Below, piece by piece: positions 1 through 14,321 of a DNA stretch of 32,000 bases (position 1 is the stretch's first letter; each line of letters begins with the position of its first letter). The stretch is from assembly GCA_001766815.1 (NCBI GenBank), contig LYOS01000005.1, forward strand, positions 14,168-46,167, written 5' to 3'. A program made the translations under genes and the position numbers. Source of the DNA: Candidatus Syntropharchaeum caldarium (GTDB lineage: Archaea > Halobacteriota > Syntropharchaeia > Syntropharchaeales > Syntropharchaeaceae). The notes below the pieces were generated by a model. That model was given only the letters and a program-made list of their open reading frames with translations. It had not been told where the DNA came from and searched no databases.

Positions 1-53
1 TACACTACTCATTTTATCTCCTCAACCTTTGCTCTGAGATACTCTTCTCTTTT

Positions 54-64
54 AACTTAAAAAC
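54..64 (-). promoter_or_regulatory. TATA-like box (aacttaaaaac) upstream of a gene start at the left window edge
   Basis: The same 11-mer occurs at 6881-6891 upstream of a DUF104 antitoxin. On the minus strand it is followed by gaggagataaaATG, with the ATG at 12-10 and the ORF running off the window. Confidence 0.3.
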
Positions 65-178
65 ATTCTCACCTTTTACCCTTGATCCAACCCACTTCCC
101 CAAAATCTACACCAACGGCGGAAGCGAGATCTACTACCGCTGAAGCATCTTCACCCAAACCCCACCAGCCACAACGTT

Positions 179-326
179 CCCTGTAGGCTTTTCCAAAAGC
201 TTAACTTAGGCAAAAATTTCATCTGCGATAGGGCTATTCAGCTACAGTACACCCGAAGCCCACCACAAGCGTTATAACATACCACTAGAAAAGATCAGAT
301 TTTACGACAGAGGAGATCGTGTTATT
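179..326. repeat. Cassette-punctuating repeat, copy R1 (truncated mosaic)
   Basis: Begins ccctgtaggcttttccaaaagc plus gatagggctattcagc and ends with the core tttacgacagaggagatcgtgtt (301-323). It lies 24 bp from the vapC stop. Confidence 0.8.
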
Positions 327-349
327 GGGCACTTTTATAAGCCCCAATT

Positions 350-724
350 CTACTCAATAAACTCAACACCTTCAAGACCTTTAAAATGCTTATCGCTTGT
401 GACCACAATCGCACCCTCACTTCTGGCAGTCGCATATACTATAGCATCCGCCATTCCAAACTCATATATAAGGCTGAAATCAGCAGCCGTTATCGCCAGA
501 TTATCGTCCAACGAGATTATTCGTGTTCGCATCATCTGGGCATAGGCCTCAAGAGCCGCTTCTTCGTTCACTTCGTTTTTTATCTTCCTATAAACCTCAT
601 AGACCACTATCGCGGGCGTGATTGCACTTTCTTCATCTACTTCTTTGATATAGTCTGCATACTTATCAGAAAGCGGGCCATCAGCAAAGTATTCTATCCA
701 ACCGTATGAATCAATCAGAATCAA
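350..724 (-). CDS. vapC: PIN-domain ribonuclease toxin VapC
   Basis: 124-aa ORF with the PIN acidic residues visible (MILIDS, VVYEV, GMADAI, VTSDKHF). Its start overlaps the upstream antitoxin ORF by 4 nt. Confidence 0.9.
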   Translation of the reverse strand: MILIDSYGWIEYFADGPLSDKYADYIKEVDEESAITPAIVVYEVYRKIKNEVNEEAALEAYAQMMRTRIISLDDNLAITAADFSLIYEFGMADAIVYATARSEGAIVVTSDKHFKGLEGVEFIE

Positions 725-930
725 AAGCGATCACTCTCATCTCTAATATCGCGAGTTTGAACTCCCTTTGCAAAACCCTTCATCTCTTTTATTGGTAACT
801 GGGGTATGAGCGTTATGATCCCACCTTTCTCAATCATAACCAACTTTTCTTTCGGTTTCAGCCCTATCTTCTCTCTAATGCTTCTTGGGATCGCGATCTG
901 AAACTTTGATGAGACTGTAACAACGGCCAT
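721..930 (-). CDS. vapB: AbrB/SpoVT-family antitoxin (VapB-type)
   Basis: 69 aa with an N-terminal AbrB/MazE-like pattern (VSSKFQIAIPRSIREKIGLKPKEKL). Translationally coupled to vapC. Confidence 0.85.
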   Translation of the reverse strand: MAVVTVSSKFQIAIPRSIREKIGLKPKEKLVMIEKGGIITLIPQLPIKEMKGFAKGVQTRDIRDESDRF

Positions 931-964
931 CGATATTACCTCTGCTTTACTTTTTGTTCTCGAG

Positions 965-974
965 GGATAAAAGG
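965..974 (-). promoter_or_regulatory. TATA-like box (minus strand ccttttatcc) for the vapBC cassette
   Basis: A/T box about 40 nt upstream of the ATG at 930. Six other cassette starts in the array show 36-40 nt (47 nt at the left-edge start). Confidence 0.4.
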
Positions 975-1051
975 TTTACGCCTCATACTCACCCTTCCTT
1001 CCGCGCAATCATAACAACTGCTAACCGCACCTATTGCATAACTCAAGACCC

Positions 1052-1250
1052 ACGGTAGGCTTTTCCAAACGTCCATTTATCGACAGAACTATTCAGCCAA
1101 AAGCTGAATCTCTCGACCGAAGATGCCTTTAATAAAGGCATTGCCAAAATGGTCTGCCTTCGGCGGACCTCGATCAACCGCAGGTCGATCATTTGAGGAT
1201 AAACTTTGTGAAAGTTCATATTGGGTGTATGAGGCGTGCTTTACGCTTCA
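1052..1250. repeat. Cassette-punctuating repeat, copy R2 (variant hairpin set)
   Basis: Shares ggtaggcttttccaaa, attcagcc..gctgaat, gaccgaagatgcctttaataaaggcattgc and gtgtatgaggcgtgctttacgc with R3/R4. The middle is replaced by other hairpins, e.g. ggtctgccttcggcggacc at 1151-1169. Confidence 0.8.
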
Positions 1251-1697
1251 CACCCACCCCTCCCTCCACACCATCACTCCCACGCACACGCTCCCAACCC
1301 CATTCCCCACAACCCATGCAACCCCAACCCCAACGACCCCAAACATCGTCATGAACAGGTACCCCAATCCAACCACCAACCCAAAAACCAACCCGCTCAG
1401 CACCACCAGCTCTTTAACATCCTTCTGAATCCTCTTGATCGCAAAAAAAATCCGACTGAGCGAAGCGAATGTCGGATGCAGGGGTAGAGGGGGCGGCAGC
1501 CCCTCTCGACAAACAGACTCGCGACAACCATCACCCGCAGCACCCCAGCCCCGCCAGCCGCATACTCGGCACCGAGCACCCCTGAGCACCAGAGCCGCTG
1601 CCGGAACGAGCAGCGAGAAGATGACAATAAGCGACTTCACAACGGTTCTTTTGAGTGCATCGCCGTGGCTACCCTCAACGAAGAGCGTGACGTTCAA
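1248..1697 (-). CDS. Doubtful hypothetical ORF in a GC-rich patch
   Basis: 149-aa ORF with two hydrophobic stretches. Its C-terminal third is the reverse complement of repeat box A1, and a hairpin plus T8 signal lies inside it. Probably not a genuine full-length CDS. Confidence 0.15.
   Translation of the reverse strand: MNVTLFVEGSHGDALKRTVVKSLIVIFSLLVPAAALVLRGARCRVCGWRGWGAAGDGCRESVCREGLPPPLPLHPTFASLSRIFFAIKRIQKDVKELVVLSGLVFGLVVGLGYLFMTMFGVVGVGVAWVVGNGVGSVCVGVMVWREGWV
1251..1306. repeat. C-rich box (G-rich on the minus strand), copy A1
   Basis: cacccacccctccctccacaccatcactcccacgcacacgctcccaaccccattcc. Near-identical copies lie at 2564-2617 and 6903-6956. Confidence 0.85.
1443..1477 (-). terminator. 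Hairpin followed by a T8 run (minus strand)
   Basis: Minus strand reads atccgac-(14 nt)-gtcggat followed by tttttttt. Oligo-T is the archaeal termination signal, and this lies downstream of the PIN-like gene 1706-2332. Confidence 0.4.
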
Positions 1698-1705
1698 TTG
1701 TAGTT

Positions 1706-2332
1706 TCAGTCTCCAATAGTGCGCATAACACGCCGAACCACATTACCCGAATCAAAATGGACTTCAACACACTGTTCTTTCAATTCGTCTCTTATCTCTT
1801 GATGATCAAAATCTTCTTTGTCGGATGTATAAAAAATTACCGTGTCATAATCATTCCCATTTTTCGTAAAACTCAATATAGATTCATAAATCTGTCTATC
1901 GTTGTCTTTATATGGCGGAAGATTCGCTACATCTCTTATAAATGCCCTGTATGCTATATCGGAATTATGCGGTATTGAAATGCACAATGATTTAATATCT
2001 TCTGTTGATTCCAGTACGTCAAGCTTTTCTTTTGAAGATTCCATATACAATTGCTTCAATTTTTCTTTCACATCGTATAATCTATCTTTATGATATTCAG
2101 ACCTCATTAAATCGTTTAAAAAGAAGATGATCTCTTTCAATTTATCTTCTCTCCGTTTAAATCTCTCATCTATCCTACCTTTGACTTCAAAAAACGAAAA
2201 TTCAGGGATTGCGACGTCAATCTTATTTTCACTTGCCAAATCGAGAAGATATCCACAATTTCTATCCTGTGCAAGGATGATTGAGTAAATAAAATTTGTT
2301 TCACCAATCACGAGGAGTTTTGGATTTTTCAT
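1706..2332 (-). CDS. Atypical PIN-like nuclease with a helical insertion
   Basis: 208 aa. N-terminal strand LLVIGETNFI, then PEFSFFEV, DNDRQIYESI and C-terminal FYTSDKEDF match the order of PIN acidic motifs. Residues about 55-105 are a K/E-rich helical insert. Confidence 0.6.
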   Translation of the reverse strand: MKNPKLLVIGETNFIYSIILAQDRNCGYLLDLASENKIDVAIPEFSFFEVKGRIDERFKRREDKLKEIIFFLNDLMRSEYHKDRLYDVKEKLKQLYMESSKEKLDVLESTEDIKSLCISIPHNSDIAYRAFIRDVANLPPYKDNDRQIYESILSFTKNGNDYDTVIFYTSDKEDFDHQEIRDELKEQCVEVHFDSGNVVRRVMRTIGD

Positions 2333-2450
2333 GGGTTCTAACTCCTTTTAACTCCTCTAATAATTCAGGTATGTACTTCAGAGCACTGCCCCAAATTTTC
2401 TGGACTTTTTGGCTCTTAAAGGCTATGTCTTTCTTTGTCAGTTCTTCCAT
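2301..2450 (-). CDS. Small 49-aa ORF, putative partner (antitoxin-like) of the PIN-like gene
   Basis: Hand translation gives MEELTKKDIAFKSQKVQKIWGSALKYIPELLEELKGVRTHEKSKTPRDW. It overlaps the start of the 208-aa ORF by 32 nt, and a TATA-like box lies 38 nt upstream. Below the ORF-track size cutoff. Confidence 0.4.
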   Translation of the reverse strand: MEELTKKDIAFKSQKVQKIWGSALKYIPELLEELKGVRTHEKSKTPRDW

Positions 2451-2483
2451 TCTTTATCACCTACCAACAATTCATCGTCATGT

Positions 2484-2493
2484 TTTAAATATT
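2484..2493 (-). promoter_or_regulatory. TATA-like box (minus strand atatttaaaa)
   Basis: Centred about 38 nt upstream of the ATG at 2450. Confidence 0.35.
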
Positions 2494-2563
2494 GTTCGCT
2501 TGCATCCACGACCCATCAATGGAACCACCTCATCAGTGTCCTTGCCACATTCATCCACCTAAA

Positions 2564-2856
2564 CCCACCCCTCCCTCCACACCATCGCGCCCACGCACAC
2601 GCACCCAACCCCGTTCCCTGTAGGCTTTTTCCAAAAGCCCACCCTGCAAAAACCCCACCTACCGATAAAGCTATTCAGCCTTCGGCTGAACCGTTCGACC
2701 GCAGATGCCTTTTAATAAAGGCATTGCGAAAGGAGCACCTCTTTGAGGTGCTCAAGTCCAACCGAAGGTTGGACATGGGTGTGTGAGGCGTGCTTTACGC
2801 CTCATAAGAGATCGGAGTTTACGACAGAGGAGATTGTGTTATTATCGGTCATGGTT
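2564..2856. repeat. Cassette-punctuating repeat, copy R3 (full length: C-rich box A2, seven hairpins and the core)
   Basis: 2617-2856 is near-identical to 4365-4600. The core tttacgacagaggagattgtgtt lies at 2818-2840. The repeat end supplies the last codons and the stop of the DUF3368 ORF. Confidence 0.9.
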
Positions 2857-3336
2857 TAGATCCGTTTCACCAACGATCTTTCTGTATTCTTTTTCACCAA
2901 GTCTGAAGCCGACCGCCATGAGATCGTCGATCGTTCTCTTCAGATCGAGATTATTATCTTCTGCCGCCAGCAACAGCAGACCGATCGTTCCGGTAATCTT
3001 TAATCCAAGAGATCTGGCGATTCGTCTTCCGTCACCATCATCAATAATTAAAAGTGCTGCGTTTTCCTCCTTTGCAAGTACTATCGCCTCTGCTTCACCC
3101 CTGTCCAGCATCAAGCAGAGAGAGTCTACCGCAAGTTTATTCTCGACTTCTTTCACTTCTATCCATCCCGCAGATCTCACCTCGTCTGCGCCATATAGAT
3201 TCCCTCCTTGTGTTACCACTTCATCATAGACCGCTTGTGGAATACAAAGATCATCAAAGTAGGTCTTCAATAATTCAAACCTTCCAATTCTCGAAAGTGC
3301 AATGAGTGGTGTAGAGTTGCATACAACAGTCATCAT
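2842..3336 (-). CDS. DUF3368-family PIN-like toxin
   Basis: 164 aa. VVCNSTPLIALSRIGRFELL and LDRGEAEAIVLA are characteristic of the DUF3368/COG2405 PIN-like family. Overlaps the upstream UPF0175 ORF by 4 nt. Confidence 0.8.
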   Translation of the reverse strand: MMTVVCNSTPLIALSRIGRFELLKTYFDDLCIPQAVYDEVVTQGGNLYGADEVRSAGWIEVKEVENKLAVDSLCLMLDRGEAEAIVLAKEENAALLIIDDGDGRRIARSLGLKITGTIGLLLLAAEDNNLDLKRTIDDLMAVGFRLGEKEYRKIVGETDLNHDR

Positions 3337-3617
3337 CTGTCCAGTACTTCTTTCAGTGTTTTGAGGTCGTTTTCTGCATCTTTTGCTGTATAATTTATCG
3401 TAACGCCCTTTTCATTCAGTAGCATCAACATCTCCCATTTATTTCGTACGCCAGCGACTTCCGCAGCTTTTCCGAGGGATAGTTTACCTTCCCTGTAGAG
3501 TTCCACAGCTAATGCTCGCCTGATAAAGATATCAACCTCCGCCTCCCTGATCTTTGCCGCCGCCAAAAAAGAATCTGGTAGATTAACTTTTGCCTCGATT
3601 GTTCCCATCTGCCTCAC
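3333..3617 (-). CDS. UPF0175-family antitoxin
   Basis: 94 aa. AVELYREGKLSLGKAAEVAG is typical of UPF0175/COG2886, the known partner of DUF3368. The track start is a GTG at 3617; the ATG at 3608 is more likely. Confidence 0.8.
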   Translation of the reverse strand: MRQMGTIEAKVNLPDSFLAAAKIREAEVDIFIRRALAVELYREGKLSLGKAAEVAGVRNKWEMLMLLNEKGVTINYTAKDAENDLKTLKEVLDR

Positions 3618-3640
3618 CGTCGTTTAATATCTCACTCATA

Positions 3641-3650
3641 CATTATATAT
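3641..3650 (-). promoter_or_regulatory. TATA-like box (minus strand atatataatg)
   Basis: About 38 nt upstream of the ATG at 3608. It lies inside the nonsense tail of the FrhB-like fragment. Confidence 0.4.
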
Positions 3651-4253
3651 CCTTATGTGGCAAGTTCTATGATGGTTGCGGTGCGATATAACCCTATTAT
3701 CAACCCCTTCCTTCAACTTCTCGTTCACCTGCTGCGCCTTCCTGAGCCCGTGTATGTGACAGGGCAGCCCCACGACCGCAAACTTCTCCCCTTCTTTTGA
3801 ATTTAGAATCTCTTTTAGTGCTACATTCGCGGGCACAGGGCAGTACTTCGAGCCTCTCGCCTCGATGACCTCTTCTCTTGTTCGTGCAATGAACGGCTCT
3901 GGCTCTAAGGGGTTATCTTTTTTCATTCTTGTAACCAAAGCGCCATCTATTATTCCTTCTTCTAAAGCGAAGATCAAAAGTTGAGTAACAAGACCACCCG
4001 ATGAAGAATTATATCGGATATCGTAATCTGTAGAATATCCAATGTAACAATTAAGATAATTTCCGATCAGAATATCATCTGGCTCTTTCCCGAATATCTC
4101 AAGATTCAACTCTTTGAAATCGACCTCGTGACCAGGGCAGACTTTATAGCAGATTCCACAGTTGTTGCATTTTTCTTCGTTCAATTCAGGGACATAAACC
4201 CCTTTCTTCTCATCGATCACCATCTCTATCGCTTCATTCGGACACAGAGCGAG

Positions 4254-4307
4254 GCACGTCCCGCAGCCTGTGCAAAGGTTATCTTTTACGACCTGGGAGA
4301 TTGTGTG
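4254..4307. repeat. Segment of the FrhB-like 5' coding region duplicated at 5289-5342; contains the 23-nt core
   Basis: Manual alignment gives 48 of 54 identical positions with 5289-5342. 4285-4307 (tttacgacctgggagattgtgtg) matches the terminal core of R1, R3, R4 and R5. Confidence 0.85.
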
Positions 4308-4364
4308 ATCATTCATTCCATTATCCAATGAGGAAACGCTAACATTTAAATTCATCTCTCCTTC

Positions 4365-4600
4365 TACAGTAGGCTTTTCCAAAAGCCCACACGGCAAAAA
4401 GCCCACCTTCGGTAGGGCTATCCAGCCTTCGGCTGAACCGTTCGACCGAAGATGCCTTTAATAAAGGCATTGCGAAAGGAGCACCTCTTTGAGGTGCTCA
4501 AGTCCAACCGAAGGTTGGACATGGGTGTATGAGGCGTGCTTTACGCCTCATAAGAGATCGAAGTTTACGACAGAGGAGATTGTTTTGTCGGTCATAGTTT
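4365..4600. repeat. Cassette-punctuating repeat, copy R4 (reference copy; seven hairpins and the core)
   Basis: Hairpins: 4372-4387, 4401-4418, 4423-4435, 4452-4470, 4479-4499, 4502-4520, 4528-4552. Core at 4564-4586. Confidence 0.9.
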
Positions 4601-4629
4601 CCAGACGATCATCCAAAATTTTGGAAAAA

Positions 4630-5004
4630 TTATTTGACATATTCTACATTTTCCATGTATTCAAACTCTCGATCACCTGTAAGAAATTTTATTCGGTGTC
4701 TTTTCGCATATACATATCCAAGACAATCTATCAGCGAAAGATTCTTACTTTCTTTGTTGGTGAGCAATCTCAACTCGGATGCTTTAATGTAATCCCGATC
4801 TTCGGCATACGCTATTTCGATCTCGTCTCTCACCAACCTCAACATATCCATTGTATCGCTTCCGAAATCCCTGAATAAAGCATACGTAAGTTCAAAAATA
4901 TTGAATTCTGTGGTGATAAGTGATCTATCAGAATAATTTTTGTAACCTGAACTACCTTTCAAAATCTCAACCAAAGCGTATGTGTCCGCAAAAAATTCAG
5001 CCAT
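4630..5004 (-). CDS. vapC: PIN-domain toxin VapC
   Basis: 124 aa with FFADTYALVE, TEFNIFEL, SLIDCLGY and FLTGDREF. Overlaps the antitoxin ORF by 8 nt. Confidence 0.85.
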   Translation of the reverse strand: MAEFFADTYALVEILKGSSGYKNYSDRSLITTEFNIFELTYALFRDFGSDTMDMLRLVRDEIEIAYAEDRDYIKASELRLLTNKESKNLSLIDCLGYVYAKRHRIKFLTGDREFEYMENVEYVK

Positions 5005-5182
5005 GTATGTTCCTCAGCTCTTCTTTCAATCTTTGAGAATCTACTTTCCAGCCCTTAAGAATGCCAAACATTGCTTTTTTCTTCACCTCTAACTCTACTT
5101 CCTCACCCTCTTTCAAATCCAGTTTCTCAAGCGGCTTCAGGACATTGTTCTCATACACAGCTTTTATGATCATAGGCGACAC
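4997..5182 (-). CDS. DUF104 (AF2212-like) antitoxin
   Basis: MIIKAVYENNVLKPLEKLDLKEGEEVELEV is the family signature. The track start is a GTG at 5182; the ATG at 5173 is more likely. Confidence 0.8.
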   Translation of the reverse strand: MSPMIIKAVYENNVLKPLEKLDLKEGEEVELEVKKKAMFGILKGWKVDSQRLKEELRNIHG

Positions 5183-5206
5183 CTGTGAATAATTTGTGTT
5201 TGTAGG

Positions 5207-5214
5207 TTAAAAAG
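5207..5214 (-). promoter_or_regulatory. TATA-like box (minus strand ctttttaa)
   Basis: 37 nt upstream of the ATG at 5173. The same motif occurs at the same distance at 6071-6078. Confidence 0.4.
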
Positions 5215-5254
5215 ATGGCGATGGTAGGAAAGGCTCGCTAAAAAGAGTGATAGT

Positions 5255-5342
5255 CCTGTAGGATGTGGGCGTAAGATAAGCCTACAACGCACGTCCCGCA
5301 GCCTGTGCAGAGGTTGGAGTTTACGACCTGGGAGATTGTGTT
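5255..5342. repeat. Cassette-punctuating repeat, copy R5 (short chimeric copy)
   Basis: cctgtaggatgtgggcgtaagataagcctac followed by the 54-nt FrhB-like segment. It ends in the core tttacgacctgggagattgtgtt (5320-5342), 25 bp from the PIN stop. Confidence 0.8.
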
Positions 5343-5367
5343 GCTGAGGGGCAGGTTTATCATTTCC

Positions 5368-5850
5368 TCACATCTTTTCAAGAATATCTATAATTCCTTC
5401 AAGATCGATCTTTCTGATTAAAACAGAGCTAACACCAGCCTCTTCTGCATGAGAATGCATTTTTCCATCGTCCGTAAACAGTATCGCATCCTCTATCCTT
5501 GCCAATGCTATAAAATATGAATCGAATCCGGAACAGCCGGTCTCCGTGGCAATTCTCCATGCGATGTTGAAGAGAATAGCTTCATCAACAAGCTCATAAG
5601 AATTGAAAACTCCTTCAGAGATTCTCCTCGCAAGATCCTTATCACTGAGTCTTTTTGTTACTGCTGCTGTTTCAACAACGCAAACTTTTGGGATATAAGT
5701 TTCTACCTTCTTTTCTTCCAGTTTCTTAATGATTAATCTGCACTTTTCATGGGTTTCCAACTCTCTTTTATGTATTTTACTTGAGATGGATTTTGGTGGC
5801 TTAAAAATGCTCTTTATGATGACAGATGTGTCTAAAACAGATCTATTCAT
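5368..5850 (-). CDS. vapC: PIN-domain toxin (160 aa)
   Basis: SVLDTSVIIK, CVVETAAV, SGFDSYFIALA and LFTDDGKM. Overlaps the antitoxin ORF by 8 nt. Confidence 0.85.
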   Translation of the reverse strand: MNRSVLDTSVIIKSIFKPPKSISSKIHKRELETHEKCRLIIKKLEEKKVETYIPKVCVVETAAVTKRLSDKDLARRISEGVFNSYELVDEAILFNIAWRIATETGCSGFDSYFIALARIEDAILFTDDGKMHSHAEEAGVSSVLIRKIDLEGIIDILEKM

Positions 5851-6046
5851 AATAATTCCTAATCCGCATATCCTCTAAAACTTTGTCTATATCCACCTTT
5901 GCTTCCAGTTCTCCCAGTTCATCAAGCAATTTGCTAAAACTTCCTTTGATTGTTATTCGCACTTCTGTTTTTTCTGGCAAATCCAGTTTCTCAAGCGGCT
6001 TCAGGACATTATCCTCATACACAGCTTTTATGATCATACGAGACAC
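5843..6046 (-). CDS. DUF104 (AF2212-like) antitoxin
   Basis: MIIKAVYEDNVLKPLEKLDLPEKTEVRITI. Likely ATG at 6037 (track GTG at 6046). Confidence 0.8.
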   Translation of the reverse strand: MSRMIIKAVYEDNVLKPLEKLDLPEKTEVRITIKGSFSKLLDELGELEAKVDIDKVLEDMRIRNYYE

Positions 6047-6070
6047 CTGTGGATAATTTGTGATTGAAGG

Positions 6071-6078
6071 TTAAAAAG
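6071..6078 (-). promoter_or_regulatory. TATA-like box (minus strand ctttttaa)
   Basis: 37 nt upstream of the ATG at 6037; paralogous to 5207-5214. Confidence 0.4.
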
Positions 6079-6116
6079 ATGGCGATGGTGGGGAAGGTTC
6101 GCTCAAAGATCGATAG

Positions 6117-6175
6117 CCCTGTAGGATGTGGGCTTTTGGAAAGCCTGTGGTGTGTGAGGCGTACTTTACGCCTCA
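6117..6175. repeat. Cassette-punctuating repeat, copy R6 (short)
   Basis: ccctgtaggatgtgggcttttggaaagcct (first hairpin in inverted orientation, gg loop) plus tgaggcgtactttacgcctca. The last hairpin contains the stop codon of the PIN pseudogene. Confidence 0.75.
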
Positions 6176-6669
6176 TAATGGCTTCCACACCTTAATCCAG
6201 TCAACCCGCTCAAAATCGCTGTCGTTTGTGGCGATGTTTGTTAGTCCATACTTTTCCATCGTTGCAAGATGCATGGCATCGTTTGGCAGCAAATTGTATT
6301 TCTCCATCAGCATCGTTACTTCCACACATTCGAATCCAATGAAAGAGATATTCAGGTCGAGTTCATCAAACAACATCGTCACTGCATCAAAATCTACCAG
6401 TTCAATCAAGCTGGGATCTCTCTTTATCTCTCTTGCAACTCTATAGGGTGCGATTCCTCTTAATCTGAGTAATTCAGATTTTAGAAAATTCAGTAAAACC
6501 TCTGAGATTATGATGTCGTTAACGTATCCTCTCTATTCTTTTCTCTCAACTTGCCTAAGAAAGTCTCTACATGATTCTCCAAAAATCTCATGTCCTGAAA
6601 AAGGTGATATGTAAATATATTAGAATCTATGAATATCTCTAAGCCTCTTGATAAAGCGCTGCGCGTCAT
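6173..6669 (-). pseudogene. vapC: PIN-domain toxin interrupted by a frameshift
   Basis: The ATG at 6669 overlaps the antitoxin stop (TGATG) and gives MTRSALSRGLEIFIDSNIFTYHLFQD...REKNREDTLTTS*. The remaining PIN motifs (IIISEV, LLPNDAMHLA, ATNDSDF) continue in another frame from about 6530 to the stop at 6173. Confidence 0.75.
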
Positions 6670-6860
6670 CACTCTCCGTTTTCTGTGGACTCTATTATTT
6701 CATCGATCTGTTCATTGCTCAACTTTGACACAGCATAAGTATTATCTACAGCACTGATGGGGATTCCGATCTCGATCACATCCCCCTCTTTCAAGCCCAA
6801 TTTCTTAAGTAGCTTCAAAACCTCGTCCTTGTATACTGCTTTTATTCGCATTTGCGTCAC
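6669..6860 (-). CDS. DUF104 (AF2212-like) antitoxin
   Basis: MRIKAVYKDEVLKLLKKLGLKEGDVIEIGI. Likely ATG at 6851 (track GTG at 6860). Confidence 0.75.
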   Translation of the reverse strand: MTQMRIKAVYKDEVLKLLKKLGLKEGDVIEIGIPISAVDNTYAVSKLSNEQIDEIIESTENGE

Positions 6861-6880
6861 TGATAGTTAGTTAATCTTTG

Positions 6881-6891
6881 AACTTAAAAAC
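6881..6891 (-). promoter_or_regulatory. TATA-like box (aacttaaaaac)
   Basis: About 36 nt upstream of the ATG at 6851. The same 11-mer occurs at 54-64. Confidence 0.35.
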
Positions 6892-6902
6892 TTGCCGTTC
6901 AT

Positions 6903-7099
6903 ACCCACCTCTCCTTCCACACTGTCACCCCAACGCACACGCACCCAACCCCATTCTCTGCAGGCTTTTCCAAAAGCCCATCCTGCAAAAAGCCCATCTG
7001 TGATAGGGCTATTCAGCCTTCGGCTGGATATTTTCGATCTTTGATCGGAATTGTCCTATCGAAGATGGGCTTTTGGGTGCAGGCTTTGAAAAGCCTGCG
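6903..7099. repeat. Cassette-punctuating repeat, copy R7 (C-rich box A3 plus an inverted-repeat-bounded variant)
   Basis: Box at 6903-6956. 6959-6998 (gcaggcttttccaaaagcccatcctgcaaaaagcccatc) is an imperfect inverted repeat of 7064-7098, and the two arms flank the cagccttcggctg hairpin. Confidence 0.8.
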
Positions 7100-7331
7100 T
7101 TCGATTAAATAGAAGACGCAATCAAACTGAACGAGCGATGCGAACCGCATATCCGCCTGCTATGCAGTCTGAACGATAGCGAAAGTGCAACGTGGTAACA
7201 GGGATATCAACATGTTTTAGGGCGAAGCTTCTCTCAAATCCCCTTTTTGATATTCCAGCGGAGTAAAGTGTCGAAGGTGGGCACGCATCCCAATCTTCAC
7301 GTCTTTTTCCTCAACTGCCACTTCCAATAAT

Positions 7332-7859
7332 TCATAGAACGTATGTATAAGCCCTCATAAGCTGGCTATAGTGAAATGGACTGGATGGGTTTTTACTGTC
7401 GTAATATTGCAAATTCTTAGCATAACCATCATGTATTTTTCCAATCGGATCTCCAGGCTTCACACCAAGCTTAAAATAGGCTCTTATGAGATTTTTATCC
7501 CTCCAAATCCAGGCTATCTCAAAGAATTTCATTACATTGCCATAGGCGCGCTCAATCTTTACAAGCTTTTTAGGATCTTTTGAATAACGCTTTTTACGCT
7601 CCGTATATGCATCCTCAACCTCGTCCTCAGTTGCCCCTTCTTTCAATCCCAGTATATTAAGAGAAGTAGTAAACATCTTAATTTCGTTTGTTCTTGCTTG
7701 AAAATTACAACGAGGGCACTTATGAAAGGCAAAAGGACCGTTTGGATCTTGATTTCCAATCGGGCTTGGTGACATGATGGCAGCACACGCTGGACATCGC
7801 ATATCACTAAACCTTCCTGGCATATTGAGACTTGTCAGATCATTACCTCCTGGTATCAT
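7332..7859 (-). CDS. Zinc-ribbon protein with two degenerate J-domain-like repeats
   Basis: 175 aa. CPAC...CPRC, then ILGLKEGATEDEVEDAYTERKKRYSKDPKKLVKIERAY and YFKLGVKPGDPIGKIHDGYAKNLQYYDSKNP...LMRAY. The layout is J-helix II/III-like but there is no HPD. Confidence 0.55.
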   Translation of the reverse strand: MIPGGNDLTSLNMPGRFSDMRCPACAAIMSPSPIGNQDPNGPFAFHKCPRCNFQARTNEIKMFTTSLNILGLKEGATEDEVEDAYTERKKRYSKDPKKLVKIERAYGNVMKFFEIAWIWRDKNLIRAYFKLGVKPGDPIGKIHDGYAKNLQYYDSKNPSSPFHYSQLMRAYTYVL

Positions 7860-7986
7860 TCAGGTATTCACGTATCTTCTTTTCTATTTTTTCCTCAAAT
7901 TTATCTATATCGGCCATCAATTCTTTCACAAAACGATAACATTCTTCATGATATGCTAAGTTAGTTAGTGGTGAAACAGTTGCCAT
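7843..7986 (-). CDS. Small 47-aa helical ORF
   Basis: Hand translation gives MATVSPLTNLAYHEECYRFVKELMADIDKFEEKIEKKIREYLNDTRR. ggaggt lies immediately upstream, and the ORF overlaps the start of the 175-aa ORF by 17 nt. Confidence 0.35.
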   Translation of the reverse strand: MATVSPLTNLAYHEECYRFVKELMADIDKFEEKIEKKIREYLNDTRR

Positions 7987-8035
7987 ACCTCCGTCTTCAA
8001 GAGATTTATGGCAAAAAGAACATTTTGAGCGATCA

Positions 8036-8188
8036 CTATATTGTTTTTGTTAAATTACATCGATTACAAACATATTTTATATGCCTGAGCTTTCCATCCA
8101 CGGTACGAGCTTCCATTGAATTTCCGCACTTCTCACAAAGAACATCATGCCGAAGTATATCCTTTATCTCTTCAATTGCAGAAGGCAC
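8036..8188 (-). CDS. Small 50-aa zinc-ribbon ORF
   Basis: GTG start. (M)PSAIEEIKDILRHDVLCEKCGNSMEARTVDGKLRHIKYVCNRCNLTKTI, with CxxC...CxxC. Lies directly downstream of purM. Confidence 0.35.
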   Translation of the reverse strand: MPSAIEEIKDILRHDVLCEKCGNSMEARTVDGKLRHIKYVCNRCNLTKTI

Positions 8189-8238
8189 TTATATCATCCC
8201 CGTTTCAATTTGATTACGTCGTCTATTTTTCTGGACTT

Positions 8239-10456: not shown

Positions 10457-12445
10457 TCATATTCGGCCAAGTTTCCTGAGCATCTCGGCGGTCTCAGGGA
10501 AGAGATCAAGGTTCTTGTTCGGTAGATACATCGACTCAGGATAGAGCTTCATGTAGTCGGGATGTATCGCAGCTTCGATGAACTTACACTCTTCTGAGAA
10601 CCTGTCCGCCATCTTCCGCTCTGCTCTTGAGACAAGTGCCTTTCTGACACCTGTTCCTGCAGCGTTCCCGATACCTTCGATCTTATCGAGTGGGAACTCA
10701 GGGAACATACCCATTGTACGGGCAGACTCTGGATCGATGAAGTTTCCGAATGCACCAGCGATGACAAGCTTATCGATCGTCTCCACGGTCTGACCCATCT
10801 CACGCATCAGTAGATATGCGCCACAGAACATAGCTCCCTTTGCAAGCGTCAGTTCTCTTATATCTGCCTGTTCGATCACGATATCCTTCCCGATCGCGGT
10901 CTCTTCTGCTGGAACGATCACATACTCCAGGCCTCGTGGACCTTCCCGCATCCTCGGATCGACTCCCAGTAACTCTCTGTTCATCTGCCCGGATGGGAGT
11001 ATTATACCAGCCTTCAAAAATTCTGCTGGAACATCACAGAGCCCGGATCCACATATACCGATCGCTTTTGTCTCCACTTTTCTGAACTTTGAACAGGATC
11101 GGATAGCGCCTGATGTGATCCCTTCGATGAGTTTGTATTCGACTTCTCTTGTCTCGGGATCGATTCTGATCTTCTCAACCGCACCATTTGACGCCCGCAT
11201 ACCGCACCTGATCATCATACCCTCAAATGCAGGACCTGAAGCACATGATACACACATGCATCCATCCTTGTTTCCAAGCGTCATCTCGGTGTTTGTACCG
11301 ATATCAAGCTCGAGGATCATCTCATCGTTGTTTAAGAAGTCAACCGCAAGCTGGGCTGCAATCTGGTCTGCACCCACAAAGCCCCGTATGATCGGGAGTG
11401 AATAGGTAGATCCATTGGGGTGCATCTTCAAACCGAGTTTTGCAGAGGGCGCTCTCAATGATTTTCTCACTGCTGCGGGGTATGGTGCAAAGGTCACAAA
11501 CTTGGGCCATACGCCGAGGAGTAGATGATGCATCGCTGTATTTCCGACAACCACTGCTTCATATACTTCATCATGTCGAATACCGGTAAGCTCGCAGATC
11601 TCATCGAGCATGTCATTCAATCCACTTATGACGGCCGACTGCACTGTCTTGAGATTTTCCATCCCCTTCTTTGCATATGTAATCCTTGATAAGACATCCT
11701 CACCATAGGGAATCTGGGGGTTCATCCTCGACGAAACGCCCACGACTTTCCCTGTGTTGAGATCCATCAGGAAACCTGCAAGTTTTGTCGATCCAACATC
11801 AACCGCAAATCCATAGCATCGATCAGTGGTATCACCTGGCTCAACCGCCAGCACCTTGTTATCGTCGATGGTTACAACGGTAATATCAAAGTCCTTCTTC
11901 TTACCACCCACCTCTCGCATCACGATTGGTAGATATGTCAGAACTTCATAGGGTATCTCAAGATCGATTCCATATTGCTTCTTGAACTCTTCAAGGAGTC
12001 TTGTTTGATCTGCACGATCATCATGCAGCGTTGCTTTCGGTAGTACGATATGATACTTGCGGATCGCTGGGTCGATGACAAAGTCCTCTGGCAGCTCAAG
12101 TCCCTCTGTCTGAAGCCGCTGTGCCCCGAGCCTGCTGGATTCAGGTACCTTGAGCACAAGCCTACCTTCTTTGGGCATCTCAATACAGCAGAGTAGTCTG
12201 ACTCCCTCTCGTTTTTCATCATCAGAGAGGAGTGCCGCTTCGGAGGGCTGCATATCATCAAGTAGCTCAAGTCCATCTTCCACAACGACCTTACACTTTC
12301 CACACTCACGTGCTCCACCGCAGATCGTAGCGATGTCCACACCGAGCTTCATCGCAACCTCAAAGAGGTTTGTACCAGGCTCAAATGTGCCTCGCAACCC
12401 CGATGGGAAGAAGACAACGTTGTAATCAGTTACGTGTCCTGCCAC
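10457..12445 (-). CDS. ATP-dependent reductive activator of corrinoid proteins (RACo/COG3894, ASKHA fold) with an N-terminal [2Fe-2S] ferredoxin domain
   Basis: 662 aa. CGGARECGKCKV...LLCC plant-type ferredoxin pattern, then the ASKHA phosphate motifs FAVDVGSTK and LDIGTNTE. Confidence 0.8.
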   Translation of the reverse strand: MAGHVTDYNVVFFPSGLRGTFEPGTNLFEVAMKLGVDIATICGGARECGKCKVVVEDGLELLDDMQPSEAALLSDDEKREGVRLLCCIEMPKEGRLVLKVPESSRLGAQRLQTEGLELPEDFVIDPAIRKYHIVLPKATLHDDRADQTRLLEEFKKQYGIDLEIPYEVLTYLPIVMREVGGKKKDFDITVVTIDDNKVLAVEPGDTTDRCYGFAVDVGSTKLAGFLMDLNTGKVVGVSSRMNPQIPYGEDVLSRITYAKKGMENLKTVQSAVISGLNDMLDEICELTGIRHDEVYEAVVVGNTAMHHLLLGVWPKFVTFAPYPAAVRKSLRAPSAKLGLKMHPNGSTYSLPIIRGFVGADQIAAQLAVDFLNNDEMILELDIGTNTEMTLGNKDGCMCVSCASGPAFEGMMIRCGMRASNGAVEKIRIDPETREVEYKLIEGITSGAIRSCSKFRKVETKAIGICGSGLCDVPAEFLKAGIILPSGQMNRELLGVDPRMREGPRGLEYVIVPAEETAIGKDIVIEQADIRELTLAKGAMFCGAYLLMREMGQTVETIDKLVIAGAFGNFIDPESARTMGMFPEFPLDKIEGIGNAAGTGVRKALVSRAERKMADRFSEECKFIEAAIHPDYMKLYPESMYLPNKNLDLFPETAEMLRKLGRI

Positions 12446-12504
12446 CTATATACCTCCTGTAACCTTCAATTGATTGTAATTAAAAGAAAAAGAAAAAAGA
12501 GAGT

Positions 12505-13203
12505 TCACTCAACCCTCTTATCGAGTTCCGCCATCGCCATCTTAATCTCTTGGACCATACGCTTTATCGCATCAACTCCCTCGACCGCGTCTGCTGCATA
12601 ACCGTCTGCACCGATCTCTTCAGCAAACTCATCTGAGGTTGCACCACCGCCGATGATCGTCTTGACCTTGTCCCTCAGACCCTCATCTTCGAGATCCTCG
12701 TGGAGTTCTTCCATAACCTCGAGTGTTGGAGTCATGAGTGTACTTGCAGCGATAACATCAGCACCAACTTCCTTTGCCTTCTTTATGAACTCTTCTGCAG
12801 GAACATCTCGTCCAAGATCATAGACCTCAAATCCAGCAGCCTCAAGAAGTGATGCGGTGATAGTCTTACCGATGTCGTGAATATCTCCCTCAACAACACC
12901 GATTACGACTTTACCGATAGTCTCGCCACCTGATGCCGCCATCTCTTCTTTGATTCTTGGCATCACAATCTCCATCGCGGCATCCATTACGTCAACACAC
13001 ATCAGCATCTCTGGGACAAAGTATTCGCCCGCCTCGTATTTGTCACCTGCAATTGTCATACCCTCACCAAGACCAAGTCTGAGTATATCAAGTGGGGTTG
13101 CTATACCTTCATCGATATGCTCTTTGATGAGGTTGACACATGTTTCTTTATCTCCTACAACAAGCGCATTCTTTACAGCTTCAAGGAATTCTTCTCTATC
13201 CAT
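12505..13203 (-). CDS. Methyltransferase cognate corrinoid protein (B12-binding)
   Basis: 232 aa. Helical cap domain followed by GDIHDIGK (DxHxxG), STLMT and IGGGA. Confidence 0.9.
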   Translation of the reverse strand: MDREEFLEAVKNALVVGDKETCVNLIKEHIDEGIATPLDILRLGLGEGMTIAGDKYEAGEYFVPEMLMCVDVMDAAMEIVMPRIKEEMAASGGETIGKVVIGVVEGDIHDIGKTITASLLEAAGFEVYDLGRDVPAEEFIKKAKEVGADVIAASTLMTPTLEVMEELHEDLEDEGLRDKVKTIIGGGATSDEFAEEIGADGYAADAVEGVDAIKRMVQEIKMAMAELDKRVE

Positions 13204-13277
13204 ATAACATCACCTTCTAATTCTATCGACATTACTATTTTTGTATCCACAATTCAATCTTGTACTTATAAATTTAT

Positions 13278-14321
13278 CTATTTTTTACCAAATTCTGCGG
13301 TTGCATCAACCATGGCTTTGATCTTCTCTGAAGGTGTCTGTATCCAGAAATCACATCCAGGAGCTACCATATCAATACCCTGATCGATTACTGCTTTCAC
13401 CTGCTCTTTTATTACTTCTATTGGAGCCTGGTGAATCACACTCTTGGGTGCCAGATTGCCGATGATTGGATATCCTGGAGTAACAGCGTCTGCAGAAGCC
13501 CTCACATTTGCGATTGAATCCTTCTCATCAACTGCAATTGCATTCGCACCGCATTCAACCATATCACCAATTATCGGTTCGGTCTTTCCACAGATGTTAA
13601 GAACAACCGGAACATCGATCTCTGCAATTATTTTCGTCAGATATGGCTTAACAAACTGTACAAACTGTTCTTGGGATATGTTATCACATGGTGCACCCAT
13701 GTCGTGGAGCGTTATCATATCAACACCCGCATCAACATATGCATTTGCAATCTCGATGAAAGGGGGTGTCAGTGTTTCCATGAATCGACCAACGAGATCA
13801 GGGTCTGACTTCATCGCCATCATGAACTTGATCGTATCCACAATATAACTGCTCAGTCCTGTAAATGGTGGTACCATAAAGACATTTACAGCCGCCTTGC
13901 CACCATACTCTTCCTTCAGTATCTTTATCGCCTTTGAGATCACTGGAACACGCTTTGTGTTCGCGATATCATCTGGTATGTAGATCATCTCAGGGGATTC
14001 CGCGACATGCCGTTTGGAACCAGGCCAGAGGTATCTTCCTTTTTTCGCCGCTTTCTCTCTGAAATCGATCGGTGTACCGAATACCTCTGCTTCCACTGTC
14101 ATATCAAAAGGAATCGTGATGTTGTCAAGACCACAGTATTTATGTGCCGCCGCACCGAGCCTTGCCATCTTTTCAGGGTCTTTGTGTGCATCCGGCCAGT
14201 ACGCGTCTTCCTTCTCCATAAACTCCACTGTTGCGGTGGATACTGTGTTGACACACGGTATCTGATCTACTTCGTCTTTTTTACCTTCCAGAACTGCTAT
14301 CACTCTCTCGTAAGAGTTCAT
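13278..14321 (-). CDS. MtaA/MtbA-like methyltransferase (uroporphyrinogen decarboxylase fold)
   Basis: 347 aa. ERVIAVLEGKKDEVDQIPCV...TVEFMEKEDAYWPDAHKDPEKMA...TVEAEVFG are typical MT2-family N-terminal motifs. Confidence 0.8.
   Translation of the reverse strand: MNSYERVIAVLEGKKDEVDQIPCVNTVSTATVEFMEKEDAYWPDAHKDPEKMARLGAAAHKYCGLDNITIPFDMTVEAEVFGTPIDFREKAAKKGRYLWPGSKRHVAESPEMIYIPDDIANTKRVPVISKAIKILKEEYGGKAAVNVFMVPPFTGLSSYIVDTIKFMMAMKSDPDLVGRFMETLTPPFIEIANAYVDAGVDMITLHDMGAPCDNISQEQFVQFVKPYLTKIIAEIDVPVVLNICGKTEPIIGDMVECGANAIAVDEKDSIANVRASADAVTPGYPIIGNLAPKSVIHQAPIEVIKEQVKAVIDQGIDMVAPGCDFWIQTPSEKIKAMVDATAEFGKK

Follow-up and report, generated by a model that had tools for sequence, protein, structure and literature searches.

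The window that we have analyzed is a 32,000-nucleotide stretch of the genome of Candidatus Syntropharchaeum caldarium (contig LYOS01000005.1, positions 14,168 to 46,167). Its positions 1-7100 hold an array of toxin-antitoxin (TA) cassettes separated by repeats, with all of the genes on the minus strand. We find that a 23-nt core motif present at cassette boundaries is a piece of the 5' end of an FrhB-family gene. The array has probably been built by homologous or illegitimate recombination, with insertion, duplication and shuffling at the junction between that gene and a flippase gene, and no dedicated attachment (att) site. An earlier note on this DNA had taken the core copies for att-like direct repeats left by repeated site-specific insertion or exchange.

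The core motif belongs to an FrhB-family coding sequence

A search allowing up to two mismatches found TTTACGACNNNGGAGATNGTNT at five sites in the window, all on the plus strand and beginning at positions 301, 2818, 4285, 4564 and 5320, in full agreement with the five direct-orientation copies that had been described. There was no match in any of 100 dinucleotide-preserving shuffles, so none is expected by chance. The core 23-mers are identical to one another at 18-22 of 23 positions in pairwise comparison. The longer match reported for the R5 repeat was also recovered: 4254-4307 and 5289-5342, the same pair as our repeat family D9, agree at 48 of 54 positions.

When read on the minus strand the core corresponds to codons ~5-11 of the FrhB-family gene, encoding T-I-S-Q/S-V-V-K/N. 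The copy at 4285-4307 translates as ..HTISQVVK.. near the N-terminus of an open reading frame (ORF) with Fer4 and FrhB_FdhB_N domains (Pfam, E = 6.6e-27), and close FrhB homologs from Methanophagales and Syntropharchaeales metagenomes begin M..(T)I(A/S)QVVKDxLCTGCGTC. In more distant genes that are intact or longer (loci L002, L003 and L029) the peptide motif is kept while 4-5 of 20 nucleotides are changed, at wobble-type positions. The conservation of the core is therefore merely that of coding sequence.

The copy at 4285-4307 thus encodes TISQVVK as the earlier note had it, but the gene in which it lies is not complete. It comprises codons 1 to ~203 (3705-4313, minus strand), with two 4Fe-4S motifs, FrhB_N and the first ~28 positions of FrhB_C. 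The match to FrhB_FdhB_C is limited to profile positions 2-29 of 150, and what had been called the FrhB-like gene is therefore a fragment too. The sequence ceases to match L003 and L002 at ~3708-3730, and the frame continues past 3705 via unrelated sequence to a stop at 3636.

The other four copies lie at cassette boundaries, in the repeats termed R1, R3, R4 and R5, and here too the original observation was correct. Homology in these repeats exceeds 23 nt, reaching the start codon on one side and codon 15 or 22 on the other. All four translate as the FrhB N-terminus, and the core copies are therefore 5' stumps of the FrhB-family gene, duplicated at the boundaries. All are on the minus strand. 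The R3 stump (2807-2852, core 2818-2840) reads MTDNNTISSVVNSDL, then a stop within HP-A, the first hairpin of the repeat, and it overlaps the stop codon of a DUF3368 PIN gene. That of R4 (4553-4595, core 4564-4586) reads MTDKTISSVVNFDL followed by a stop. In R1 (285-332, core 301-323) the start is degenerate and the stump ends ..VPNNTISSVVKSDLF and a stop (also read as ..NNTISSVVKSDLF, then a stop). The R5 stump (5289-5363, core 5320-5342) is MINLPLSNTISQVVNSNLCTGCGTCVVG, 25 codons made up of a three-residue N-terminal extension and family codons 1-22, joined to a short repeat tail. Stump lengths in the window are therefore 15 (R1), 15 (R3), 15 (R4), 22 (R5, plus the extension) and ~203 codons. 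R5 had been called chimeric, and it does have the repeat-type ggag (N-S codons) together with the gene-type ctg (Gln codon). These are two informative sites only, however, and an ordinary allelic variant fits equally well.

In the related loci L029, L030 and L031 the FrhB stumps end at codons 85, 116, ~152, 185, 188 and 215, and one piece begins at codon 16. Taking the window and these loci together there are at least eight different breakpoints, at codons ~15, 22, 85, 116, ~152, 185, 188 and ~205/215. The core would then be the segment in which all of the nested FrhB stumps overlap, and the outermost homology of the composite repeat. It marks a hot spot of recombination, but probably not a dedicated attachment site. 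A second hot spot at codon ~205 was considered and rejected. The junction between FrhB and the promoter of a UPF0175 antitoxin gene is common to the window, L030, L031 and L033, and as these are homologous they represent a single event; L002 is also truncated near this codon, but into unrelated sequence and probably by a frameshift.

Many database proteins called FrhB-like from these lineages are 120-290 aa in length, compared with ~430 aa for the full-length protein. Where contigs were inspected the shortness arises from recombination stumps, gene fusions, frameshifts or contig ends. Among the hits, P0015 has a DUF3368 domain and P0094 has tRNA-synthetase anticodon-binding domains by Pfam listing, while P0006 ends in an adapter-like tail, VSYTHLTLPTN.

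Cassettes in related loci are flanked by fragments of both genes

In relatives the FrhB-like gene lies in glycan-biosynthesis clusters with a Polysacc_synt flippase, PS_pyruv_trans and glycosyltransferases, and in L002 the flippase is immediately upstream. The flippase-FrhB spacer is ~40 nt in L030 and L031, and every cassette of the window sits in that position. These loci were found by searching with FrhB, and the sampling is biased accordingly. The distant FrhB homologs on the long contigs L034-L037 are in ordinary glycan clusters, where frameshifts or contig ends account for the short gene calls, and they are uninformative on the array.

L030, from a Syntropharchaeales metagenome-assembled genome (MAG), is 96% identical to window positions 3801-2818, and both contain the unit FrhB(..205)-UPF0175-DUF3368. 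In the window the order is FrhB(1-~203), UPF0175/DUF3368, FrhB(1-15); in L030 the last element is FrhB(1-116), which is then joined to FrhB codons 16-85 fused to HP-A. L031-L033 have an array without hairpin clusters. The order in these loci is flippase, [small ORF + PIN_12], flippase(283-422), spacer, FrhB(1-215), [UPF0175 + DUF3368], FrhB(1-188). Inserts flanked by direct partial duplicates of their target are therefore found in the window, L030 and L031, as in Campbell-type insertion. The copies around the cassettes of L031 are in both FrhB and the flippase, giving the signature of insertion-duplication for both genes.

The PIN_12 cassette of L031 is 97.6% identical to window positions 2615-1587, compared with 75-89% for the neighboring segments. 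The order of the PIN_12 and UPF0175 cassettes in L031 is the opposite of that in the window. Cassettes have moved between array positions. In addition, R3 is recombinant. It is L030-like (96%) up to ACAATCTCC and R4/L023-like beyond, so that the window and L030 diverge inside the core.

The junction of FrhB(1-15) with HP-A is also present in L023, L025 and L028, which come from other JGI samples. In these contigs it is preceded by either a ParE-type cassette or the 3' remnant of a ParE gene that has been fused to a truncated cas10, and an intact flippase follows it. The fusion in L025 (reverse complement 538-2469) joins a cas10/csm1 gene, truncated and with Pfam matches to HD, Csm1_B and Cas10 palm2 (positions 1-51 of 133), to the final ~70 nt of a gene for a ParE-type toxin; the FrhB stump and HP-A come next. 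The same type of junction thus truncates a CRISPR effector gene in another sample.

Chimeric joins at the repeats of a metagenome-assembled contig could in principle generate such structures artificially. Repeats of 130-280 nt do break short-read assemblies, and some Logan contigs end inside R2, R3 and R4. However, independent Logan assemblies of run SRR3669912 gave two contigs that are 100% identical to the window, L001 to positions 1142..1 and L039 to positions 4398..2785. Between them they span R1, the gene-UPF0175 junction and the DUF3368-core-HP-A junction, so an artefact is not to be expected there, and the same junctions are present in other samples and MAGs (L023, L025, L028 and L030). 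We therefore regard an assembly artefact as extremely improbable.

The repeats are composites of gene stumps and hairpin clusters

The repeats that separate the cassettes are ~130-290 nt in length overall. In its full form of ~280 nt the repeat is a mosaic of FrhB(1-15), a hairpin cluster and a flippase 3' stump. The last of these is a G-rich/C-rich module, and because it corresponds to the 3' end of the flippase gene the repeat is a composite of two gene stumps plus hairpins. The stump in R3 (2558-2615, minus strand) ends ..NGVGCVCVGAMVWREGWV and a stop, thereby including the last ~18 codons, and it is here that the 97.6% match to L031 begins. That in R7 (6899-6955, minus strand, repeat family D1) ends ..NGVGCVCVGVTVWKERWV and a stop. 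A longer C-terminal fragment of ~140 residues of a Polysacc_synt-type flippase lies at 1248-1697 (minus strand), matching residues 283-418 of the 422-aa flippase of L023 (BLASTP, E = 8e-16), and it follows the PIN_12 cassette as in L031. Its 149-aa ORF has a hairpin-like insert at 1440-1508 (TCCGAC..GTCGGA, GAGGGGGCGGCAGCCCCTC).

Following the FrhB stump the hairpins come in the order HP-A (TATGAGGCGTAAAGCACGCCTCATA), GTCCAACCTTCGGTTGGAC, GAGCACCTCAAAGAGGTGCTC, ATGCCTTTATTAAAGGCAT and others, with HP-Z (GGCTTTTGGAAAAGCC) the last. The R4 cluster (4362-4552) has six perfect or near-perfect hairpins from HP-A (4528-4552) to HP-Z (GGCTTTTCCAAAAGCC), with fold z-scores of −9.4 as DNA and −8.9 and −7.4 as the RNA of the two strands. 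R3 has its cluster at 2616-2806. Over a 130-nt tract that ends at the core, R3 (2711-2840) and R4 (4457-4586) are 98% identical, whereas their flanking cassettes are unrelated. R2 (1048-1250) has HP-A at 1222-1250, a diverged middle and HP-Z at ~1048-1069; the flippase fragment comes before it, and an FrhB stump is lacking. R6 (6105-6178) is short, consisting of HP-A (6155-6175) and a tail directly after a degraded PIN gene. The tail of R5 (5235-5288; families D10 and D12) is homologous to that of R6 and HP-Z-like. R7 (6956-7100) is a partial cluster at the edge of the array, beside housekeeping genes. The boundaries at R2, R6 and R7 do not have the core. A scan of the whole window for perfect hairpins with stems of at least 8 bp gave 14 hits, all 14 within 1-7100. 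The internal units are modular 19-nt hairpins, GTCCNNNN-loop-NNNNGGAC, with compensatory stem variants.

The hairpin cluster is not confined to the array. It occurs at L007 274-442, L014 4185-4305, L018 2011-2123, L008 6262-6311 and L019 6016-6042, and it occupies ordinary intergenic sites between housekeeping genes in Ca. Syntrophoarchaeum butanivorans as well as in a second MAG of Syntrophoarchaeum. The clusters in Syntrophoarchaeum are fused to the stump of a 36-codon ORF (MKSLIDY..IDWGAFR), which has no Pfam hit; from its appearance we would presume it to be IS5-like. The left neighbor of the cluster thus varies (FrhB codon 15 or 85, the end of a PIN gene, the end of the flippase or the 36-codon stump), while its ends at HP-A and HP-Z are fixed. 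Short palindromic units, a mosaic organization and dispersal in intergenic sites are the properties of the repetitive extragenic palindrome (REP) and bacterial interspersed mosaic element (BIME) class, and all are found here. The cluster looks like an archaeal element of REP/BIME type, or of the miniature inverted-repeat transposable element (MITE) type.

These properties suggest another origin for the array, in which a mobile MITE- or REP/BIME-like hairpin element inserted at FrhB codon 15 and near the flippase 3' end, and unequal crossing-over or composite mobilization then amplified the enclosed unit, with the core carried as baggage. The fixed ends with varied left neighbors, the copies in ordinary intergenic sites of Ca. 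Syntrophoarchaeum genomes, the modular units with compensatory stem changes, the confinement of all perfect hairpins of the window to the array and the 98% identity of R3 and R4 over 130 nt would all be consistent with this. Yet the left flanks have no target-site consensus, we have seen neither terminal inverted repeats nor target-site duplications, and the element is absent from viral contigs. We know of no transposase associated with the cluster. Moreover, the L031 array has no hairpins, so the architecture is independent of the hairpin cluster, and neither that array nor the presence of a different cassette in each unit would be explained. Overall we find this origin doubtful. A viral or plasmid source was also considered and set aside; HP-A is absent from the viral contigs of IMG/VR, and the single hit to the core (L038) is an unrelated chance match.

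It is conceivable that the stump and repeat have been retained by selection for some function in cis, as a leader peptide, a terminator or insulator, an mRNA-stabilizing 3' structure or a small RNA. The repeat folds very stably whichever strand is taken, an ATG with an in-frame stop inside HP-A is kept in R3, R4 and L023, and T-tracts follow some of the toxin genes. But R1 has no ATG, R2, R6 and R7 have no stump, and the stumps of relatives are of many lengths. There is no evident RNA signal specific to one strand, the hairpins of the two strands being of equal quality. No known RNA family was detected in the whole window at Rfam gathering thresholds, and a permissive search of 1-7400 (E ≤ 1) returned a single spurious lncRNA hit. 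We consider that selection for such a function is a very unlikely reason for the repetition.

Tests for a site-specific recombination system

The observed properties of the core are probably not those of a dedicated att site. It has no dyad symmetry, with a longest inverted exact match of 4-6 nt within the core ±15 nt, and there are no inverted recombinase-binding arms around the crossover. The direct repeats are not of fixed extent, given the eight or more FrhB ends and the boundaries R2, R6 and R7 that do not have the core. There is no tRNA or tmRNA in the window as a target for integration. No integrase or recombinase domain was found in the ORFs of the array or in the 17 large ORFs of the remaining 25 kb, all of which are housekeeping, and the array continues beyond the left end; nor was one found in the related loci L002, L003 and L029-L033.

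Integron attC sites are imperfect palindromes of 55-150 nt with R''/R' core sites (RYYYAAC and GTTRRRY). Positions 1-7200 contain no RYYYAAC...GTTRRRY pair with a spacing of 45-160 nt on either strand. The repeats consist of gene stumps and several perfect hairpins, and we therefore rejected their identification as attC sites.

A site-specific platform might nonetheless operate if a recombinase encoded outside the window acted on the FrhB core, or on the whole composite repeat as an attC-like site, with each event duplicating the crossover region in an integron-like or att-type manner. This would account for the core in direct orientation at four cassette boundaries, for the FrhB(1-15)/HP-A junction with other cassettes in other metagenomes and for the switch of parentage of R3 inside the core, within 9 nt of identity. 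Many unrelated cassettes adjoin the FrhB start codon, cassette order differs between genomes and the repeats are strongly structured, like attC sites. Set against this are the multiple 3' ends of the FrhB duplicates and the like duplication of the flippase, the boundaries and core symmetry described above, the conservation of the core in distant genes at the level of codons only, the fact that no integrase was found in the window or in the seven related loci, and the L031 array, which has a like architecture without any structured repeat. We consider such a platform unlikely. The earlier proposal of repeated recombination at an att site in the 5' end of the gene is thus upheld in part. There are footprints of repeated recombination at this position, R3 changes parentage inside the core and cassettes have moved. 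The dedicated short att core is not sustained, since the duplicated FrhB pieces vary in length, dyad symmetry is lacking, conservation is at codon level, the flippase is duplicated likewise and no recombinase was found in the loci examined.

Probable insertion-duplication at the flippase-FrhB junction

Homology-driven insertion and duplication is the explanation that we prefer, and we can suggest how it might have proceeded. TA cassettes would have accumulated in the flippase-FrhB spacer of this lineage. Each gain would be a single crossover (a Campbell-type 'pop-in') of DNA carrying a cassette together with a 5' piece of FrhB or a 3' piece of the flippase gene. For FrhB the product would be a truncated copy, the cassette and a further copy, and for the flippase a full copy, the cassette and a 3' fragment. 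The direct repeats so created would allow cassettes to be looped out and re-inserted elsewhere, shuffling the array. Later the hairpin-cluster repeat may have taken the place of the DNA lying between codon 15 of FrhB and the final ~18 flippase codons, generating the composite repeat, which could then have become the main source of homology for unequal crossing-over, gene conversion and cassette exchange. The fusion of the 15-codon stump to HP-A would be a single old junction, spread as part of the repeat.

The reordering of cassettes, the 98% tract shared by R3 and R4 and a mosaic promoter and antitoxin segment found in two cassettes and in L028 agree with looping-out, unequal crossing-over and gene conversion. 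In the last of these, 5109-5243 and 5973-6107 (family D4) contain a promoter and the first ~23 antitoxin codons that are 90% identical, and 98% identical to L028 545-647. The C-termini of the antitoxins and the toxins differ, indicating that recombination has occurred inside cassettes as well as at their boundaries. We infer circular intermediates, the order of events and the action of homologous or illegitimate recombination by the host, rather than a dedicated recombinase, in joining the segments.

There are several observations that this explanation does not readily accommodate. No fewer than seven different cassettes have an end 0-45 nt from the FrhB start codon, and repeated non-specific seeding at one place looks improbable, although the FrhB-based sampling is biased. 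For homologous recombination the identity of just ~9 nt at the R3 crossover is short. Neither a circular cassette nor an empty site was observed. The array extends beyond the left end of the window, where a recombinase could lie, so that a distal enzyme may exist. Furthermore, insertion-duplication leaves the origin of the hairpin cluster unexplained. Because of the recurrent position at the FrhB start, the short R3 crossover and the extension of the array, we continue to allow some probability to a site-specific system.

The broadest form of such a system would be an integron-like platform without a classical integrase in Syntropharchaeales and ANME-1-related archaea, in which the ~280-nt composite repeats act as portable sites for the capture, amplification and shuffling of TA and defense cassettes at the surface-glycan flippase-FrhB junction. 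A recombinase or nuclease that recognizes hairpins, encoded elsewhere, could be the catalyst. This is a speculative idea to which we give a low probability.

Comparison with known systems

In mode of operation the array comes closest to insertion-duplication with repeat-mediated amplification and shuffling, while its layout resembles that of a TA-rich chromosomal integron. Literature searches on Syntrophoarchaeum yielded no relevant work on TA arrays or repeats.

In common with Campbell-type insertion-duplication and with repeat-flanked amplifiable or translocatable units, there is a truncated copy, an insert and a further copy of the same gene end in direct orientation, with duplications of variable length. 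Looping-out and re-insertion between direct repeats would explain the reordering. However, the array here is natural and contains multiple cassettes of TA modules at one junction of a glycan locus. The duplicates have been trimmed to stumps of 15-22 codons and fused to a hairpin-cluster repeat, and no circular intermediates were observed.

Chromosomal integron arrays rich in TA cassettes are exemplified by the superintegrons of Vibrio. The likeness lies in the co-oriented small cassettes, many of them TA modules, with structured repeats between them and evidence of reordering. By contrast, no IntI gene was found here in the window or related loci (the array continues to the left), and the ~130-290-nt repeats are composites of stumps and perfect hairpins, with zero core-site pairs. 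Integron cassettes are mostly promoterless and are expressed from a common Pc promoter, whereas those of the present array probably have TATA-like promoters of their own. Integrons of archaea are a subject of Ghaly et al. (2022, PMC9668308).

Integrative elements accreting in tandem at a gene-end att site, in tRNA or protein-gene targets and with archaeal integrases of SSV or pNOB8 type, would similarly yield nested direct repeats of one gene end, with displaced stumps as an array. But the units here have no integrase gene, the stumps range from 15 to 215 codons with no fixed att core, and the upstream flippase is duplicated too. They are TA modules of 0.6-1.8 kb, rather than viruses, plasmids or islands.

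The hairpin cluster on its own is comparable with bacterial REP/BIME elements, having short extragenic palindromic units in variable mosaics and compensatory stem variants (GTCCNNNN..NNNNGGAC). It differs in its archaeal host and in the lack of a RAYT-type transposase in the fetched loci (no genome-wide search was aimed at one). The clusters are also fused to gene stumps, seemingly in replacement of deleted sequence.

The cassettes and the edges of the array

Six cassettes were assigned by Pfam, all on the minus strand. At 350-930 a MazE/AbrB-type antitoxin is paired with a PIN toxin. The cassette at 1706-2455, which is the one 97.6% identical to L031 and differently placed there, encodes a small ORF and a PIN_12 protein of 208 aa. 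The UPF0175 antitoxin and DUF3368 PIN-like toxin occupy 2842-3617 (96% to L030, ~80% to L031-L033). AF2212-like antitoxins with PIN toxins are found at 4630-5182 and 5368-6046, the promoter and antitoxin N-terminus of the latter being contained in the mosaic segment 5973-6107. A further cassette of this kind at 6173-6860 is degraded. Its PIN gene (6173-6672) is split into ORFs of 54 and 78 aa, of which the 78-aa ORF matches positions 79-119 only of the PIN profile and stops in HP-A of R6. TTTTTAA boxes can be read upstream of each antitoxin gene, suggesting that each cassette has its own TATA-like promoter.

The array continues past the left end of the window. L001 extends 323 nt further, and contains what by eye looks like a pair of an antitoxin and a RelE/ParE-like protein. 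At the other edge, 7332-8190 and 7100-7330 (minus strand) include a 175-aa zinc-ribbon-containing protein, with a weak CPP1-like hit only, and a 50-aa zinc-ribbon ORF; a non-coding stretch of ~230 nt separates R7 from the gene for the 175-aa protein. Further along, at 10457-14321 (minus strand), is a methyltransferase module of a URO-D/MtaA-like methyltransferase, a B12-binding corrinoid protein and a RACo-type corrinoid activase. This is a housekeeping context consistent with an archaeon related to methanogens or alkanotrophs.

Significance

The movement of TA modules in archaea is poorly understood. In an uncultured lineage of alkane-oxidizing archaea, this locus reveals how a TA island grows and reshuffles at one surface-glycan junction, leaving nested stumps of both flanking genes. 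The boundaries of stump and hairpin provide a concrete and testable model, setting homology-driven pop-in and pop-out against a dedicated recombinase, and they can serve as sequence markers for such arrays in metagenomes. For annotation, many of the short 'FrhB-like proteins' in databases from these lineages are probably stumps rather than functional genes. The hairpin-cluster repeat also present in Ca. Syntrophoarchaeum genomes offers a second line of inquiry, toward a possible archaeal element of the REP/BIME kind.

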